A DNA stretch of 64,000 nucleotides from an uncultured Gammaproteobacteria bacterium (GTDB lineage: Bacteria > Patescibacteriota > Microgenomatia > JAMCZE01). Shown here in pieces: positions 24,689-41,096 of the stretch; position 1 is the stretch's first letter; every line of letters begins with the position of its first letter. The notes beneath the pieces were generated by a model. It saw only the letters and a program-made list of their open reading frames with translations, did not search any database and had not been told where the DNA came from. The stretch is taken from contig CAZNUP010000002.1 in assembly GCA_964576435.1 (NCBI GenBank), positions 107,302 to 171,301 of the forward strand, in the 5' to 3' direction. Made by a program: the position numbers and the translations under genes.

Positions 24689-25426
24689 TTAACTACTTAA
24701 AGATTTGAAAAATCTGGCCCAATCATAAGCGATCAGTGGAACTAAAAACGGAAGTGAGTTGAGGATTATATGAGCGCTGATTGGATAAAAGATATTTTTT
24801 GTTTTTAAATAGATCCATCCAAGAAATAAACCTAAAACAAATGTATTAATTATAAGTACAGGATAAACATGTCCCAGTGCAAACAGGCATGAGCTAATAA
24901 CTAGTCCTGGAATTATTCCCAGCTTTGCTTTGAAGCTGTTTAAAAGTATCCCCCTTGCGAAAAGCTCCTCGATAATCGGAACTAAAAAAACAATCGTTAT
25001 TAAAGAAATAATATATTGGCTCCAGGTGTTACCTGTTCCCAGACTAAGGTATTTGGTTTGCTCATTAAATGCAGATGTTTGGTTTACGGAGTTAAATATA
25101 AGCCCTGATACAGCTGTCGCAATTAGACTGATAAGAATAACAATTGGAATAATTATTAGAATAATTTTAAAGTTGAATCTTTTGTGATTTAGTTTGGCAA
25201 ATGTTTTTTTAATGTAAAGATTAAAAATAATTATTAATAGACTAAGACTTACTAGGTTTTGGAGTAAAAAAATTATTTCCGGATAAACTTTTGGGTTAAG
25301 GAGAGTTGTTACTTTGCCGATGAGGAAGAAAGAAAATAATTGAGCCAGAAAATAAATAATGATTTTCCTTAAAAGAGGTTTATTGAAAGGTTTGTCTGGA
25401 TCGAAAGTTTCCGAGGTTTTTAACAT
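24689..25426 (-). CDS. CPBP (CAAX) family intramembrane metalloprotease
   Basis: EELFARG (EExxxR) and FALGH (FxxxH) motifs; multi-TM. Confidence 0.7.
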   Translation of the reverse strand: MLKTSETFDPDKPFNKPLLRKIIIYFLAQLFSFFLIGKVTTLLNPKVYPEIIFLLQNLVSLSLLIIIFNLYIKKTFAKLNHKRFNFKIILIIIPIVILISLIATAVSGLIFNSVNQTSAFNEQTKYLSLGTGNTWSQYIISLITIVFLVPIIEELFARGILLNSFKAKLGIIPGLVISSCLFALGHVYPVLIINTFVLGLFLGWIYLKTKNIFYPISAHIILNSLPFLVPLIAYDWARFFKSLSS

Positions 25427-25499
25427 TAGATTAGTTTATCAAAATTCGACTCATGTCAGAGGAGAAGACGATTAATAGAGTAGTAATACTGGAGAATTT

Positions 25500-25613
25500 A
25501 TGCAGAGGTTTACCAACAAATTCGAACGTGTTTTCGTAGAAAATGTCTTTATGTTGGCTCGCTCCGCTCGCCTCTATCTTAGTGTCGACCCGCTGCGGCG
25601 GGGGCCTCCGCTT
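25500..25613 (+). repeat. Repeat A, left arm of inverted-repeat pair A/A' (about 113 bp, GC-rich)
   Basis: The reverse complement at 27045..27156 matches with a handful of mismatches and one 2-nt indel, as read by eye. Confidence 0.6.
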
Positions 25614-25763
25614 TAACGAATTTTTTGCGCGCGCGACACAGCACAGGAGCTTCCCGGCCAATTTGGGCGAAATTGGCCGCAATCGGCCGGAATGGTGGTA
25701 TTCGGCCGCTTGGGTTCATTGTGTGATTGCACAACAGGGATTTTGGTTTAGTGAAGTCATGTT

Positions 25764-25813
25764 AGCATAGTGCTATGCTGTAATGCGAGTATTCGTTCCA
25801 CAAATGTTATAAT
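25764..25813 (+). promoter_or_regulatory. Perfect palindrome AGCATAGtgCTATGCT (25764-25779), a candidate operator, plus an extended -10 TGtTATAAT (25805-25813) 9 nt before the ATG of ORF 25823
   Basis: Read directly from the sequence. Upstream are GC-rich hairpins: CGGCCAATTTgggcgAAATTGGCCG and CGGCCGGAAT...ATTCGGCCG. Confidence 0.35.
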
Positions 25814-25822
25814 TGAAGCGTT

Positions 25823-26227
25823 ATGGCAACACCTGAAGAAAAGCTACTTAATTGGGCTAGGGAAAGGGAAGCTAATCCTCCTTCTCCATCTGTTCCAAAA
25901 CCTCCACTTGGTCAAGCCAAGGACGTTTTGATGCATTTTTTGGGAGGCTCGATTGGTTCCAGGAAGGTTACTTTAAGCGAAGGAAAGCCAACTTCAAAGA
26001 CTGCGGATGAGTTGAGGACAGAATTAAAAGAGGCACTTGGAGAATTTGACACGACAACTTTACCGGAAGATCGAGCTAGACAATATCAACAGATTGTTGG
26101 AGAACTAGATGGAAATCTGGATGATTTAACTCATTTGAATTTGATTGTAAAACACTATCACAATTTTGCCGCAGATCGTCCCCTGGATGCTCCTGAAATT
26201 AAAAAAGTGCGAAGAAAGCAAAAATAA
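25823..26227 (+). CDS. Hypothetical protein (134 aa), cargo of the A/A' segment
   Basis: ORF track. No family recognised by eye. Confidence 0.4.
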   Translation: MATPEEKLLNWAREREANPPSPSVPKPPLGQAKDVLMHFLGGSIGSRKVTLSEGKPTSKTADELRTELKEALGEFDTTTLPEDRARQYQQIVGELDGNLDDLTHLNLIVKHYHNFAADRPLDAPEIKKVRRKQK

Positions 26228-26237
26228 TATGTATTTC

Positions 26238-26903
26238 TCATGTTGTCACTTTTCTAGCGCGGTATGCTTCAATTCGTTTTGGAAGATCGTATAAATATTC
26301 GAGCAAGTAGTCTAGAAATTCAGTAATGTCGTTTGCGTCTTTAGGGTCGACACCGGAATCATTTGGGTCAGAGTGAGTTGCCTCATTCCCCAACAATCTA
26401 ACTTCATTGGACCAGTCAATCATTAGTGGGGGTAATAAACCCTGTTTTCCTAGATATTCAATTTCCTCCAAAAGATTTGCGCCTTTTGCCTTTTTATCTC
26501 GAAGCGCTGATTGCATCGAACTACGTGCCATTACCGAAGCTGCATCCCAATTCTCGTCAGTGAGGGATTTATGAGCTTGTAGCCAGTTTCTGCCAACGGC
26601 CGGTGGCCAGTGATCGGGGGATTTCGTGTATTTTAATGGAAAAGGAAGGACGCGATAATCATGGAGACTGTGACTACCACTGTATTCGCTTGATGACCAT
26701 AACACCATCACATAGCCAGCACAATTGCCGCATTTTAATGTGTCAAAATTAAGAACCTTACGGTTATTTGATTTTTTCTTTTCAGAATGATGTGCTGTTG
26801 AAAAATTACCTCTTTCCCCACAGAATGCGCATTCAATTCGATATATTGCAAGCGAGTCACCGGATTCTCCAATATGTTCACCGAGATCCCACCAACTGTT
26901 CAT
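26238..26903 (-). CDS. Zinc-ribbon protein with a C-terminal DUF4145-like domain, cargo of the A/A' segment
   Basis: CAFCGERGNF...CGNCAGY Cys pairs at the N-terminus. C-terminal LLGNEATH...LLEYLYDLP fits the DUF4145 GNxxAH pattern as recalled. Confidence 0.45.
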   Translation of the reverse strand: MNSWWDLGEHIGESGDSLAIYRIECAFCGERGNFSTAHHSEKKKSNNRKVLNFDTLKCGNCAGYVMVLWSSSEYSGSHSLHDYRVLPFPLKYTKSPDHWPPAVGRNWLQAHKSLTDENWDAASVMARSSMQSALRDKKAKGANLLEEIEYLGKQGLLPPLMIDWSNEVRLLGNEATHSDPNDSGVDPKDANDITEFLDYLLEYLYDLPKRIEAYRARKVTT

Positions 26904-27044
26904 AGCGGCATTTTACCAGAATTTTTGTGTCGGTTTGTATTGTTTTGTCTTCTTGAAAACTTCTTGACTTAAGACGACACTGAAAAAAAATCGCGAAAAT
27001 TTTTGCGTTTTCTTTCACACACAGGATTCGAGCCGACCTTTTTC

Positions 27045-27156
27045 AAAGCGGAGGCCCGCCGCAGCGGGCCGACACTAAGATGACGGCGAGCGGAGCGAGC
27101 CAACATAAAGACATTTTCTACGAAAACACGTTCGAATTTGTTGGTAAACCTCTGCA
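27045..27156 (-). repeat. Repeat A', right arm, inverted copy of A. Similarity to the tRNA-Tyr locus copy extends left to about 27020.
   Basis: Reverse complement of 25500..25613. 27022-27038 cgagccgaccttttt is the reverse complement of aaaaaggtcggctcg found in B' and at 40878. Confidence 0.6.
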
Positions 27157-27257
27157 CAGAGAGACACAGACTCACAAGAAGGGGCGGCGATCCGCGCGCC
27201 CGCAACCGCGCGGAGCGCCGCAAAGGGCTGTTTCAAAACCGCGCTGAGCTGCCGATT
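27152..27257 (+). repeat. Repeat B, left arm of pair B/B'. It overlaps the end of A' by 5 nt (ctgca).
   Basis: ctgcacagagagacacagactcacaagaaggggcggcgatccgcgcgcccgcaaccgcgcggagcgccgcaaagggctgtttcaaaaccgcgctgagctgccgatt. Its reverse complement lies at 28712..28827. Confidence 0.6.
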
Positions 27258-27329
27258 AGAAAATTAAAAAGCAGGAAAGAAAACGCAAAAATTTATTTAG
27301 GAACAGGAAAGTTACTCAAAACTGCACAA

Positions 27330-28949
27330 ATGAAATATATTGGCTATTGCCGAAAATCAACAGACGAAAAAGACAGACAGGTTTTGTCGATTGACGCACA
27401 AATTGCAGAACTCAAAGAATTTGCTCAGCGTGAACGCTTAGATGTTGTGGATTTTGTTGTTGAGGCAAAGACTGCCAAAGAACCGGGCAGGGAAAAATTT
27501 GCCGAAGTCTTGAAAAGAATTGAAAAAGACGAAGCACAAGGTATCCTTAGCTGGCATCCAGACAGACTTGCAAGGAATTCCGTGGATGGTGGGAGAGTGA
27601 TCTATCTTTTGGACACCGGGAAACTTTTGGATCTCAAATTTCCTTCATTTTGGTTCCAGAACACCCCTCAAGGCAAATTCATGCTCGGAATGGCCTTCAA
27701 TCAGAGCAAATATTATGTGGATTCCTTATCTGAAAATGTCAAAAGGGGAATCAGACAAAAACTTCGGCAGGGAATTTGGCCCAAACAAGCGCCGCTTGGC
27801 TACAAAAACAATCCCAAGACTAAAGGAATTGACATTGACTCCGAAACTGCACCTGTTGTCAAAAGAGCTTTCGCTCTTTTTGCCCAAGGCAACAAATCTT
27901 TCACTGAAATTGCCGATTTTTTCTTGAAGCATGGGATCACAGGAAAAACCGGGAAGAGATTACATTTGTCCGAAACCAAGAGACTACTGGGGAAAACTTT
28001 CTATATTGGCCATTTCAAATTTGGTGGTGAGCTTTATCAAGGAAGCCATAAGTGTTTTATCTCAAAATCCACTTTTCAAAAAGTTCAAGAGAGGCTGAAG
28101 AAAATTGAGCGACCAAGAAGGAAAGGCCACAATTTTCCTCTCGTTGGAATCGCTAAGTGTGGAGAATGTGGTGGTGCAATAACTGCCGAATCTCATCCCA
28201 GATTCTATCCCCGAACGGGAAGAAAAGTGGATTTTGTCTATTACCGCTGCACGAAAAAATTTGGCACATGCTCTCAGCGCTACACTCCGGCAGTAGATTT
28301 TGAGTCACAACTTGAAGAGTTGTTGTTTTCTGCATCTCTGCCAAATTCCTGGCAGAAAAAATGGAAAGATTGGTTGGATCGGGATGAAAAACTGGCGAAA
28401 GAATCCGCAGAGAAAAACCTGGCTGGTTATCAAGTCAGGATTGCTGACTTAGACAAAAAACAAAATCTACTGCTAGATACTTTCTTAGAGGGGACAATTG
28501 ATGAGGGAATGTTCAAAACGAAAAAGAACGAAATGTTTGAGAGAAAACAGAAACTTGAAGAAGAACTTTTGCAAGTGAAAGCTAGTGGCGCAGGTTGGCT
28601 CGAACCAATGAAAGACTTCATGGAAACGGCTTCACAGCTGGAAAAAATCGCGCGCGCAAAAAATTCCAGCGAAGATTTGCGAAACTTCGCCAAAAAGGTC
28701 GGCTCGAACTACTTTTTACAGGATCAGCAGCTCAGCGCGGTTTTGAAACAGCCCTTTGCGGCGCTCCGCGCGGTTGCGGGCGCGCGGATCGCCGCCCCTT
28801 CTTGTGAGTCTGTGTCTCTCTGTGCAGGGGCGGAAAGAATCGAACTTTCGTTGCGGGTTTTGGAGACTCGCGTCCTACCACTGAACGACGCCCCTTTATC
28901 CTGTTATTTTATCATTTTTATATGTTGGTGGTATAATCTATTTGTTTAA
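27330..28949 (+). CDS. Large serine recombinase (resolvase/invertase N-domain, recombinase domain and zinc ribbon)
   Basis: MKYIGYCRKSTDEKDRQVLSIDAQ (catalytic Ser region). ...ILSWHPDRLARN. Zinc ribbon CGECGG...YYRC. The track ORF opens at 27138 (no upstream stop); the Met at 27330 is preferred. The last ~80 codons read through repeat B' and the antisense tRNA-Trp before the first stop at 28950. Confidence 0.8.
   Translation: MKYIGYCRKSTDEKDRQVLSIDAQIAELKEFAQRERLDVVDFVVEAKTAKEPGREKFAEVLKRIEKDEAQGILSWHPDRLARNSVDGGRVIYLLDTGKLLDLKFPSFWFQNTPQGKFMLGMAFNQSKYYVDSLSENVKRGIRQKLRQGIWPKQAPLGYKNNPKTKGIDIDSETAPVVKRAFALFAQGNKSFTEIADFFLKHGITGKTGKRLHLSETKRLLGKTFYIGHFKFGGELYQGSHKCFISKSTFQKVQERLKKIERPRRKGHNFPLVGIAKCGECGGAITAESHPRFYPRTGRKVDFVYYRCTKKFGTCSQRYTPAVDFESQLEELLFSASLPNSWQKKWKDWLDRDEKLAKESAEKNLAGYQVRIADLDKKQNLLLDTFLEGTIDEGMFKTKKNEMFERKQKLEEELLQVKASGAGWLEPMKDFMETASQLEKIARAKNSSEDLRNFAKKVGSNYFLQDQQLSAVLKQPFAALRAVAGARIAAPSCESVSLCAGAERIELSLRVLETRVLPLNDAPLSCYFIIFICWWYNLFV
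28712..28827 (-). repeat. Repeat B', inverted copy of B. It ends 3 nt inside the 3' end of tRNA-Trp.
   Basis: Reverse complement of 27152..27257 at about 95% identity by eye. Direct similarity to the tRNA-Tyr flank (40878..41011) starts at 28684. Confidence 0.6.
28825..28895 (-). tRNA. tRNA-Trp (anticodon CCA)
   Basis: Manual fold. Acceptor AGGGGCG/CGCCCCT. D-stem GTTC/GGAC. Anticodon loop CU-CCA-AA. T-arm GAAAG-TTCGATT-CTTTC. No encoded CCA. Confidence 0.8.
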
Positions 28950-28997
28950 TAGAAAGAGAAAGTAAGCTTCTTTTAAATTTTTACTTCTTTTGAATAT

Positions 28998-29804
28998 ATG
29001 GATAGTGGAAAAGTTTCAGCAGAACTTTTTGTTCCTGTTGATGGAAATGAAATTTTAAAACAAACGCTTGAGAGAGTTAATACTTCTGTTGAAGTTAAGA
29101 CTTTATGGCGAATCATGAATGTCAATGCAATTGAAAGACTAGGGATGACAGATCATGGTCAGGTGCATTTTCAAATTGTTGCTAATTCAGCCCTTCGAAT
29201 TTTAAGACTTCTTAGGAACCACCACATAGAAGCATCAATAACAAAGAATTTTGAGCTTGATTTTAGATATGCCGAGGTCGTAGTCTTTCTTGCTAGTGTT
29301 TGCCATGATCTGGGGATGTCTGTTTCAAGAGAGGGACATGAAGAATTTAGTCTTTTTTTGACAAATGAGATTTTACACAAACTTTTGGATTTTTTACCAG
29401 AAGAAGAAAGAACAATTGTGATTTCAGAAACACTGCATGCAATTATTTCTCATAGAGCAGGGGGCAGGCCTTTGACAATTGAAGCTGGGGTGGTTCGGAT
29501 TGCTGACTCACTTGATATGACAAAGGGTAGGACAAGAGTATCTTATGAAGCCGGGAAATTTGATATTCATAGTGTGTCAGCTAATGCGATTGAACAAGTT
29601 GATATTGGGGAAGGGAAAGAATTTCCGATTGAAATTAAAATTATGATGACAAATCCAGCGGGGATTTTTCAAGTGGATGAGCTGATGGGATCAAAACTTG
29701 CTAAGAGTGGAATTGAGAGCTATGTGCATGTAAATGTATTTTTGGAAAACGATGGGAAGAGGAAATTGTTTAAGAGTTATGGTGATCCTGTATCGCCAGC
29801 TTAA
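28998..29804 (+). CDS. HD-domain phosphohydrolase family protein
   Basis: HGQVHFQIV ... CHDLGM ... (H..HD..D pattern). Confidence 0.55.
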   Translation: MDSGKVSAELFVPVDGNEILKQTLERVNTSVEVKTLWRIMNVNAIERLGMTDHGQVHFQIVANSALRILRLLRNHHIEASITKNFELDFRYAEVVVFLASVCHDLGMSVSREGHEEFSLFLTNEILHKLLDFLPEEERTIVISETLHAIISHRAGGRPLTIEAGVVRIADSLDMTKGRTRVSYEAGKFDIHSVSANAIEQVDIGEGKEFPIEIKIMMTNPAGIFQVDELMGSKLAKSGIESYVHVNVFLENDGKRKLFKSYGDPVSPA

Positions 29805-40712: not shown

Positions 40713-40794
40713 ATTGTACGTTGATCATACCAAAACGTCAAAAATCGGTTCCAACGACGTTTTTAGTTTAAAGTCGAATCTAATTTCGTTGGTG

Positions 40795-41011
40795 CGGTGT
40801 TACGAACAAGCTAGAACGTTATGTCGCAGCTCGCTCCGCTCGCTGCTTTTATAGCGTCGGCCTGCGGTCTCTGCGTTGGAAAAGGTCGGCTCGATCTTCT
40901 TTTTGAAGGACCGGCAGCTAGCCGTCGAATATACTCAGGAATTCGCGGCGCTCCGAGCGGTTGCGGGCGCTTGGCGCGCCGCTACCAATTCTTCTGAAAA
41001 ATCCCTGTCTG
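40795..41011 (+). repeat. Degenerate composite copy (A-like + aaaaggtcggctcga + B'-like) of the tRNA-Trp element repeats, immediately 3' of tRNA-Tyr
   Basis: 40878-41011 aligns with 28684-28826, including gcggcgctccgAgcggttgcgggcgc versus ...cgCgcgg.... 40795-40877 aligns with repeat A (gctcgctccgctcgc...). Confidence 0.5.
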
Positions 41012-41096
41012 TGCTGAGACCTGGATTCGAACCAGGGTAGCTCTTTCGAGCACGAGATTTACAGTCTCGCTCATTTGTCCACTCTGATATCTCAGC
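41012..41096 (-). tRNA. tRNA-Tyr (anticodon GTA) with a long variable arm
   Basis: Manual fold. Acceptor GCTGAGA/TCTCAGC. Anticodon loop CU-GTA-AA. Variable arm GTGCTCGAAAGAGCTAC. T-arm CCTGG-TTCGAAT-CCAGG. Confidence 0.85.

Follow-up and report, generated by a model that had tools for sequence, protein, structure and literature searches.

The interval at positions 25764-26903 of the 64,000-nt stretch of DNA analysed here (hereafter the window) is likely the cargo of a tRNA-Trp large serine recombinase (LSR) element, comprising a RAZR-like gene (ORF2) and an orphan gene (ORF1), each with its own promoter and without an inversion switch. This reading builds on features established directly, namely domains, conserved residues, fold, promoter layout, element boundaries and family-wide architecture. 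The first-pass annotation of this DNA had placed both genes correctly and in convergent orientation (their stop codons lie 10 nt apart), and its view of the segment as the cargo of an integrated, recombinase-bearing element holds; the cargos of sister elements are rich in defence genes. Coordinates of all features are collected in Table 1.

Table 1 Features of the integrative element and its target, in window positions
Feature	Position	Strand	Description
Arm A, left end of element	25501..25602	+	Inverted repeat of A'
GC-rich hairpin	25655..25679	+	10-bp stem, 5-nt loop; non-coding left end of cargo
Interrupted palindrome AGCATAG-TG-CTATGCT	25764..25779	+	~41-56 nt 5' of predicted ORF1 transcription start
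Extended -10 of ORF1, TGtTATAAT	25805..25813	+	9 nt from ATG
ORF1	25823..26227	+	134 aa; orphan, predicted helical bundle
ORF2	26238..26903	-	221 aa; RAZR-like (PD-T7-4 family), Cys4 zinc ribbon + DUF4145/HEPN
Extended -10 of ORF2, TGgTAAAAT	26910..26918	-	6 nt from ATG
Arm A'	27055..27156	+	Inverted copy of A; abuts arm B
Arm B	27149..27256	+	Inverted copy of B'
LSR gene	27330..28949	+	Resolvase + Recombinase + Zn_ribbon_recom
Arm B', right end of element and recombinase 3' coding end	28723..28830	+	
tRNA-Trp(CCA), integration target	28824..28895	-	3' end overlaps core; gene intact

A tRNA-targeting element with an internal attachment site

The interval is all that an integrative element of ~3.3 kb (about 25501-28830) carries as cargo, and the element's GC content of 0.42-0.48 stands out from flanks of about 0.35; the host is a low-GC, Patescibacteria-type genome. 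The recombinase contains Resolvase (E 3.2e-20), Recombinase (E 7.6e-12) and Zn_ribbon_recom (E 2.9e-08) domains and matches the PHROG 95 integrase with an E-value of 2.5e-72. Its open reading frame meets no stop before the crossover core and continues into the antisense of tRNA-Trp, the target gene, which is left intact and scores 57 bits in Rfam. Phage, conjugation and replication genes are absent from the element.

Three junctions share a TGCAG core. At attL, host DNA meets TGCAG (25501-25505), followed by the attP-type arm A with a T-loop-like TTCGAAC motif, while at attR the core (28823-28827) adjoins the tRNA on the arm B' side. The third junction lies between cargo and recombinase, where A'.B (core CTGCA, 27152-27156) constitutes a complete inverted attP-like site. 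The A/A' repeats, which are 96% complementary over 102 nt, are attachment-site arms of the element itself, present in duplicate, and not a dedicated inversion switch. The predicted attB reads …GGAGAATTTA-TGCAG-GGGCGGAAAG…, and the predicted circle junction B'-TGCAG-A; the excised circle is predicted to hold two inverted recombination sites that delimit two unique segments, one with the recombinase.

The same design recurs widely. One recombinase family, which targets tRNA 3' ends through a T-loop-like motif, was found at more than 140 loci covering at least 32 tRNA species, with the LSR gene converging on the tRNA gene in 108 of 133 assessable copies and co-directional with it in none. Forty-five elements have the same architecture, including the core at their ends and an intact target gene, with the cargo and the recombinase gene each bracketed by ~100-nt inverted repeats. 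At one locus, a recombinase-only unit lies between convergent tRNA genes. A (C/T)GAA motif sits 17-21 nt out in arm A as compared to 13-15 nt out in the tRNA; for the T-loop-like motif, 25 of 27 elements show an offset of 4-5 nt, the copy in arm A being the more distant one from the crossover. The attP arm mimics the tRNA T-loop. Arms are ~98% identical within one element but only ~86% between elements, which implies continuing exchange between the two copies (concerted evolution).

The cargo of sister elements is highly variable and includes restriction-modification, GmrSD, ThsB-TIR, AAA_13, Schlafen, Fic and similar genes. Elements of this tRNA-targeting recombinase family retain an internal inverted attachment site, and their interchangeable cargo is rich in defence genes. 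A tentative reading, which we hold possible though not probable, is that the two-site layout works as a natural cassette-exchange device, by which one element, or one pair of tRNA genes, would trade defence cassettes with another without phage or conjugative machinery. If so, defence genes would spread by a new route in organisms without known plasmids and conjugation, and engineered recombinase-mediated cassette exchange would have a natural precedent. A literature search on such element architecture returned nothing relevant, and we found no published description of this tRNA-targeting LSR element family of Patescibacteria (CPR). The architecture is the more novel part of the element as compared to its cargo, and the vehicle may matter more.

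ORF2, a distant relative of the RNase RAZR

PD-T7-4, or RAZR (ring-activated zinc-finger RNase), is a recently characterised single-gene abortive-infection RNase of E. coli (PMC13017515; PDB 9y9c). It joins a zinc ribbon to a DUF4145-HEPN domain in which R146/H154 are essential, is activated by phage ring proteins and cleaves single-stranded RNA (PMC13017515). DUF4145 had been classified among the HEPN families, and a zinc-ribbon-DUF4145 fusion was already listed in 2013 (PMC3710099).

The ORF2 protein contains the motifs CAFC (C25/C28), CGNC (C58/C61), GNEATH and FLDYLLEYLY. Its paired CxxC motifs and DUF4145 domain had been called from the letters at first pass, and Pfam confirms the latter at residues 110-197 (E 3.8e-12; 46.5 bits against a cut-off of 23.1). 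The PD-T7-4 profile of PADLOC, a library without a curated cut-off, matches residues 23-213 at profile positions 14-190 of 211 (E 2.6e-9, 34.9 bits), and PHROG 1305 matches over the full length (E 2.4e-28). A defence context for the gene, likewise proposed earlier, finds support in the PADLOC match and in homologs located beside restriction-modification, Vsr, NOV_C and similar genes.

A profile of 56 ORF2-family members aligned with the solved RAZR chain 9y9c_OA (E 5.9e-7) across the linker and the HEPN domain, placing RLLGNEATH of ORF2 opposite RIVGNQAVH of RAZR. All 56 homologs have C25, C28, C58, C61 and H177, and at least 90% of them keep R169. The C-terminal DUF4145 domain adopts a divergent HEPN RNase fold with the conserved R169/H177 pair, and the N-terminus, with its four invariant cysteines and a four-strand sheet in the predicted model, is a zinc ribbon. 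The latter showed no sequence-level alignment with the zinc-finger domain of RAZR; 9y9c was absent from the fold-search matches, and phmmer gave a remote match to E. coli RAZR (E 0.008). Judged by its sequence, ORF2 is related to PD-T7-4 (RAZR) distantly but over its full length. PHROG 1305 and two Shigella phage records bear the label 'DNA binding protein', from which one might take ORF2 for a DNA-binding or regulatory zinc-finger protein without RNase activity. This is highly improbable: the label is an untested annotation, ORF2 has a HEPN fold in which the catalytic Arg/His pair is conserved, and RAZR, its characterised relative, cleaves RNA but not DNA.

The ORF2 subfamily spans phyla and comprises more than 600 clusters at ~60% identity; relatives in cultured phages and plasmids are limited to distant matches of 23-31% identity. 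Its zinc-ribbon domain is strongly conserved (~60% identity across phyla), whereas the zinc-finger domain of RAZR is the most variable, specificity-determining part of that protein (PMC13017515). Because of this difference, the trigger or even the activation mode of ORF2 may differ from those of RAZR, and a conserved rather than hypervariable sensor domain could mean a different or a universal phage trigger. The six distinct homolog neighbourhoods that we inspected all differ, featuring restriction-modification with Vsr, NOV_C, DUF2321 or HTH genes, and no conserved partner emerged across them. We read ORF2 as the functional, stand-alone payload of the cargo.

By analogy with E. coli RAZR, we infer an RNase activity, a phage trigger and an abortive-infection outcome for ORF2. 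An oligomer would stay idle until phage infection, when its zinc-ribbon domains would come together on a ring-shaped protein of the phage, such as the portal, and so activate the enzyme. Activated ORF2 would cleave single-stranded RNA through the R169/H177 site; translation would stop and the infection would abort. If this RAZR-like reading is correct, ORF2 would extend RAZR-type abortive-infection RNases to the ultra-small, host-dependent Patescibacteria.

Expression and organisation of the cargo

Most genes in the window have a TAnAAT element 5-10 nt 5' of the ATG and no Shine-Dalgarno sequence. Such a leaderless layout is the usual mode of the host, and ORF1 and ORF2 both follow it, suggesting that each is expressed as a leaderless mRNA from its own extended -10. 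A sigma-70 consensus scan missed both candidate promoters because they have no -35 boxes. The extended -10 upstream of ORF1 had been recognised earlier and is indeed present at the distance then given; that of ORF2 was absent from the first-pass annotation.

ORF1 is probably a real gene, which would be a separate orphan transcribed independently of ORF2. A word-indexed search among 5.8 billion proteins returned no close homolog, Pfam, PADLOC, NCBIfam and PHROGs gave no match, and the fold matches are generic helical bundles, all of which would suit a 405-nt chance open frame in the non-coding left end of the cargo. We nevertheless regard a chance frame as unlikely. An exhaustive HMMER search yielded, besides one spurious low-complexity match, only two remote relatives, yet these are of equal length (133-134 aa) and share the motif HF.GG..GSR (E 4e-5 and 6e-4). 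Moreover, a host-type extended -10 lies at the correct distance, the structural model is a coherent 5-helix bundle (pLDDT 73), and by our own estimate a 134-codon open frame would arise here by chance with a probability of a few percent.

Upstream of ORF1, a 16-bp palindrome had been described as perfect and operator-like. The site, AGCATAGtgCTATGCT, exists, yet it is not perfect: its 7-bp arms flank a central TG that is not self-complementary (7+2+7), so that pairing covers 14 of the 16 positions. Palindromes with 7-bp arms and a 0-4 nt spacer number 41 in the window, compared with 28 +/- 4 in shuffled sequences, and since this amounts to ~0.6 per kb, one palindrome in the region is at chance level. 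Given that frequency and the lack of a DNA-binding regulator in the cargo, we rejected an operator function. The GC-rich hairpins reported from the same upstream region are real; one of them, CGGCCAATTT-gggcg-AAATTGGCCG, has a perfect 10-bp stem, and others fall within arms A and B. Over 25300-29100, an Rfam scan (E <= 1) returned tRNA-Trp alone, with no RNA family matching the hairpins or the arms, and on these grounds a structured-RNA reading of either was discarded.

Two further proposals of the first-pass annotation, an orientation switch and an addiction module, are not supported, in contrast to the defence cargo. In the former, the A/A' segment would be a phase-variable cassette that the recombinase flips, its orientation switching ORF1 and/or ORF2. 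The 102-nt inverted repeats around the cargo, the adjoining serine recombinase gene, the frequent contig breaks at the arms and the signs of continuing exchange between the arm copies described above would all fit such a device, although assembly by itself is expected to break contigs at repeats. A check of promoters against segment boundaries placed both promoters inside the segment, immediately 5' of each ATG, and expression of ORF1 and ORF2 should be independent of orientation because the promoters would move along on inversion.

Since genome and metagenome collections offered no relative of the whole element above ~60% LSR identity, orientation was compared between different elements rather than at strain level. 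Homologous cargo genes share one orientation relative to the recombinase, which speaks against an inverting segment: in consensus assemblies, cargo genes shared between elements were opposite relative to the LSR in 0 of ~13 non-duplicate comparisons, and conserved cargo-end DNA always aligned in one direction. The B/B' segment was flipped in 0 of 108 loci, again in consensus assemblies, from which low-frequency inversion could escape. Of the features that mark an inverton, flanking repeats and a nearby recombinase are present, whereas the consensus assemblies show no second orientation, and neither promoter nor coding sequence is coupled or uncoupled across a repeat boundary in this cargo. Altogether, we deem a phase-variable cassette quite unlikely. 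A Logan contig (L001) covers only the cargo, breaks off within the repeats and says nothing on orientation.

The addiction proposal would make ORF1 and ORF2 a toxin-antitoxin pair, with a small partner neutralising a HEPN toxin and the two together stabilising the element. HEPN RNases are indeed often toxins with a cognate antitoxin (PMC3710099), and ORF1 and ORF2 are the sole cargo genes, 10 nt apart. A pairing is nonetheless very unlikely, as the genes are convergent with separate promoters, an ORF1-like gene occurs in 0 of the 6 distinct ORF2-homolog neighbourhoods, and ORF1 is without a close homolog, its two remote relatives not being adjoined by DUF4145 genes. RAZR, for its part, works alone, without an antitoxin (PMC13017515).

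Comparison with known systems

ORF2 and RAZR are of nearly the same length (221 and 219 aa, respectively) and have the same domain order, a Cys4 zinc ribbon followed by DUF4145/HEPN; the R-x7-H spacing within R..GN.A.H is common to both, and each is encoded by a stand-alone gene on mobile DNA. They differ in that homology can be detected no earlier than the linker (profile E 5.9e-7) and in the zinc ribbon, which at ~85 aa in ORF2 as compared to ~63 aa in RAZR is ~20 aa longer and does not align. In addition, the host of ORF2 is of Patescibacteria type. Other HEPN abortive-infection and toxin RNases (AbiV, AbiA-HEPN, HepT, LsoA, Csm6) resemble ORF2 in their conserved Arg/His pair and defence-island contexts; ORF2 differs in having no MNT antitoxin, CARF domain or other partner, and its N-terminal sensor domain is peculiar to its family.

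With LSR elements, such as those of the A118, Bxb1 and phiC31 integrases, SCCmec Ccr and Tn4451 TnpX, the present element shares a three-domain recombinase, a short attL/attR core and a recognition motif shifted by 4-5 bp between attP-type and attB-type half-sites. In the A118/LI integrase geometry, attP-type half-sites have this motif ~5 bp more distant from the crossover than attB-type ones do. Unlike those elements, the family described here targets the 3' ends of many different tRNA genes, a habit typical of tyrosine integrases and not of LSRs. Its integrated form also retains a full inverted attP between the cargo and the recombinase gene, its recombinase reading frame crosses the crossover core, and phage, conjugation and replication genes are missing. 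As an analogy only, the yeast 2-micron FLP/FRT system and engineered inverted-attP cassette exchange likewise involve two inverted sites, as does the circle predicted here; FLP, however, belongs to a different enzyme class, the present element has no replication function, and its flipping or exchange is hypothetical.

Tycheposons, the small tRNA-gene integrative elements of Prochlorococcus, carry variable cargo in streamlined genomes. They mostly use tyrosine recombinases, as opposed to the LSR found here, and we know of no tycheposon with an internal inverted attachment site or inverted-repeat bracketing. The two groups are alike as small elements that reside at tRNA genes and shuttle variable cargo in streamlined genomes.

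Attachment-site architecture of the element and its relatives

The 3.3-kb integrated element that carries the cargo genes ORF1 and ORF2 is built from two pairs of inverted-repeat arms, A/A' around the cargo and B/B' around a gene for a large serine recombinase (LSR), with a GC content of 0.42-0.48 as compared to ~0.35 in the flanks. Its outer junctions read host/TGCAG/A and B'/TGCAG/tRNA, and the abutting arms A' and B, when reverse-complemented, read B'-core-A, so that the ends are attL and attR and the middle is a full, inverted copy of attP. Three further perfect inverted matches (17-20 nt, about 115-180 nt from the cores) may be accessory sites, two of which, GAAAGAAAACGCAAAAATTT and AAAAAGGTCGGCTCGAA, are kept at equal distance in many sister elements.

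Features of the element and its surroundings (window coordinates)
Feature	Position	Strand	Remark
Arm A	25501-25602		left border of cargo
T-loop-like TTCGAAC of arm A	25521-25527		tRNA T-loop motif at 28840-28846
Inverted match GAATTTTTTGCGCGCGCGA	25618-25636 / 28648-28666
GC-rich perfect hairpin	25655-25679		10-bp stem
Palindrome AGCATAGtgCTATGCT	25764-25779
Extended -10 of ORF1, TGtTATAAT	25805-25813	+	9 nt upstream of ATG
ORF1	25823..26227	+	134 aa
ORF2	26238..26903	-	221 aa
Extended -10 of ORF2, TGgTAAAAT		-	6 nt upstream of ATG; equivalent to that of ORF1
Inverted match GAAAGAAAACGCAAAAATTT	26997-27016 / 27275-27294
Inverted match AAAAAGGTCGGCTCGAA	27027-27043 / 28692-28708
Arm A'	27055-27156		right border of cargo; abuts B
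Arm B	27149-27256		inverted partner of B'
Recombinase ORF	27330-28949
Arm B'	28723-28830		ends at 3' end of tRNA-Trp
tRNA-Trp	28824..28895	-
Second-element relic	40790-41010	+	~220 nt; adjoins tRNA-Tyr, 41011..41096 (-)

In the relic, which stems from a second element of this family, an A-type arm is fused straight to a recombinase-3'-end/B'-type arm that abuts tRNA-Tyr (78% identity to 28693-28783 over 93 nt). Given that the fusion point is a motif present in both arms, AAAAGGTCGGCTCGA, the relic resembles the scar of a deletion.

Relatives of the window's recombinase, with 33-59% identity, were found at more than 140 loci, the genome-derived ones overwhelmingly in Patescibacteria MAGs and the metagenome contigs without taxonomic label. 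The layout host/core-A-cargo-A'-core'-B-LSR-B'-core/tRNA, with the inverted attP copy between cargo and recombinase, is complete in 45 elements, whose cargo spans 0.5-5.8 kb. The recombinase converges on a tRNA gene in 108 of 133 assessable copies (32 anticodon species), and is co-directional with it in none of the 133. Arm A carries a (C/T)GAA motif, usually TTCGAAC, that in 25 of 27 elements lies 4-5 nt farther from the crossover than does the tRNA T-loop motif, an offset that fits the known geometry of attP and attB half-sites of serine integrases. This T-loop-like motif may explain how one recombinase family targets at least 32 tRNA species.

Up to the crossover core, the window's recombinase ORF meets no stop codon. 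Of the first 20 elements, 19 likewise show an open frame that continues out of the recombinase segment, across B' and the core, and into the antisense strand of the tRNA gene (the exception being the nested inner element of L057, where the recombinase ORF was not recovered); in these and the window the ORF ends there, 6-167 nt past B'. Consequently, the integrated form and the predicted circular form must encode recombinases with different C-terminal tails, a situation reminiscent of integrase genes spanning attP, such as that of SSV1.

At one locus (L106:756-2574), the recombinase segment stands alone between convergent tRNA genes, as tRNA-Leu(+)/B-LSR-B'/tRNA-Arg(-) with no A/A' cargo, which is what recombination of the internal site, too, with a tRNA gene would be expected to yield. 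Composite loci comprise two A copies in direct orientation and then a single A' (L114:845-2951) and one element nested in another's recombinase segment (L057:1853-8641); a tRNA cluster at L022:2483-9282 harbors two elements. No description of this architecture was found in the searchable literature, and it is a more unusual feature than ORF2.

Segment orientation and cargo promoters

The first-pass annotation had proposed an invertible segment whose orientation could govern expression. Homologous cargo genes shared between elements, however, always have one orientation relative to the recombinase—the opposite one occurred in 0 of about 13 non-duplicate gene pairs—as exemplified by four genes common to L010 and L146 and by a small HTH gene that six elements carry next to A'. 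Conserved cargo-end DNA always aligned in the same direction, and a flipped recombinase segment was never found among assessable copies. This constancy argues against an invertible segment: there is no evidence for inversion in these data, which are consensus assemblies and could miss rare inversion. Contig breaks do occur at the arms, as expected from assembly alone. On the other hand, arms are ~98% identical within one element versus ~86% between elements, implying that exchange between the two arm copies continues.

Both ORFs, the -10 of ORF1, the palindrome, the hairpin, and the cysteine pairs and DUF4145 region of ORF2 are all present as initially described. The two genes are convergent, with stop codons 10 nt apart. 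At most first genes of the window, TAnAAT (often TGnTAnAAT) precedes the ATG by 5-10 nt and no Shine-Dalgarno sequence is present; leaderless mRNAs thus appear to be the host norm, and ORF1 and ORF2 both fit this pattern. Since each promoter sits inside the A/A' segment, inversion would leave promoter-gene coupling intact, which speaks against orientation-dependent expression. The palindrome is in place but not perfect, since its two 7-bp arms flank a central TG that lacks self-complementarity. With 41 palindromes of this class in the window versus 28 +/- 4 in shuffles, one per 2-kb region is the chance expectation, and its reading as an operator could not be upheld.

Defense cargo and the relationship of ORF2 to RAZR

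The first 20 elements encode 67 cargo proteins, among them EcoRI-type, C5 and D12 methyltransferases, type II restriction enzymes, Vsr, GmrSD, ThsB-TIR, AAA_13, Schlafen/AlbA, Fic, DUF3800, XRE-type HTH and LexA-like proteins, and a Mutator transposase. Together with the PD-T7-4 match of ORF2, these defense genes support the earlier proposal of defense cargo on a recombinase-borne element. Between elements that share 80-88% DNA identity in their recombinase modules, cargo is unrelated and aligns over only about 220-580 nt, implying that it is exchanged as a cassette. In several sister elements (L010:5414-5632; L014:5416-5643; L050:2276-2494; and others), a gene for a 61-76-aa XRE-type HTH protein directly adjoins A', with transcription heading across the internal site and away from the recombinase; no such gene is present in the window's element.

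ORF1 had no match in Pfam, PADLOC, NCBIfam or PHROGs, and a word-indexed search of 5.8 billion proteins returned only ORF1 itself. Exhaustively scanning 1.8 billion representatives with HMMER yielded two remote relatives (133-134 aa; E 4e-5 and 6e-4), both collinear with ORF1 over its length and carrying its motif HF.GG..GSR. Its structure model is a five-helix bundle (pLDDT 73) resembling generic bundles only. ORF1 is probably a real gene without assigned function. Neither remote relative has a DUF4145 gene beside it, and the neighbors of ORF2 homologs differed in every case examined: EcoO109I restriction-modification plus Vsr (adjoining terminase and LSR), NOV_C, DUF2321, an XRE-type HTH, or an unrelated 153-aa ORF. 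We therefore consider ORF2 a solo accessory gene and do not regard ORF1 as its partner, contrary to a two-gene module.

ORF2 joins the known RAZR/PD-T7-4 family as a new, divergent member, and several independent models match it. A Pfam search bore out the DUF4145 assignment (residues 110-197, E 3.8e-12), residues 23-213 match the PADLOC PD-T7-4 model (E 2.6e-9), and the full length matches PHROGs family 1305 (E 2.4e-28). A 2013 classification already placed DUF4145 among the HEPN families and listed zinc-ribbon fusions (PMC3710099). PD-T7-4 was renamed RAZR in a 2026 paper (PMC13017515), which describes a single-gene abortive-infection system combining an N-terminal Cys4 zinc ribbon with a C-terminal DUF4145, a divergent HEPN RNase, and reports that its defense requires R146 and H154. 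Assembly of RAZR oligomers around ring-forming phage proteins (Gp77, portal proteins) is reported there to activate the enzyme, which then cleaves single-stranded RNA (mRNA, tRNA, rRNA), stopping translation.

The ORF2 family comprises more than 600 clusters of ~220 aa that are ~60% identical, with named members including a Verrucomicrobia MAG and Novilysobacter. Across 56 aligned members, C25, C28, C58 and C61 (ORF2 bears CAFC and CGNC pairs) as well as H177 never vary, and R169 is kept in at least 90%. Over linker and HEPN domain, the profile of the family matches the solved RAZR chain 9y9c_OA (E 5.9e-7), pairing RLLGNEATH of ORF2 with RIVGNQAVH of RAZR at identical R-x7-H spacing. Within the ORF2 subfamily (P0002-P0120), the N-terminal domain is conserved too, unusually uniform for a defense gene. 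ORF2 resembles RAZR in being a solo gene, whereas its zinc-ribbon domain is ~20 residues longer than that of E. coli RAZR, does not align with it in sequence, and is strongly conserved across the subfamily where that of RAZR is the most variable, specificity-determining part (PMC13017515).
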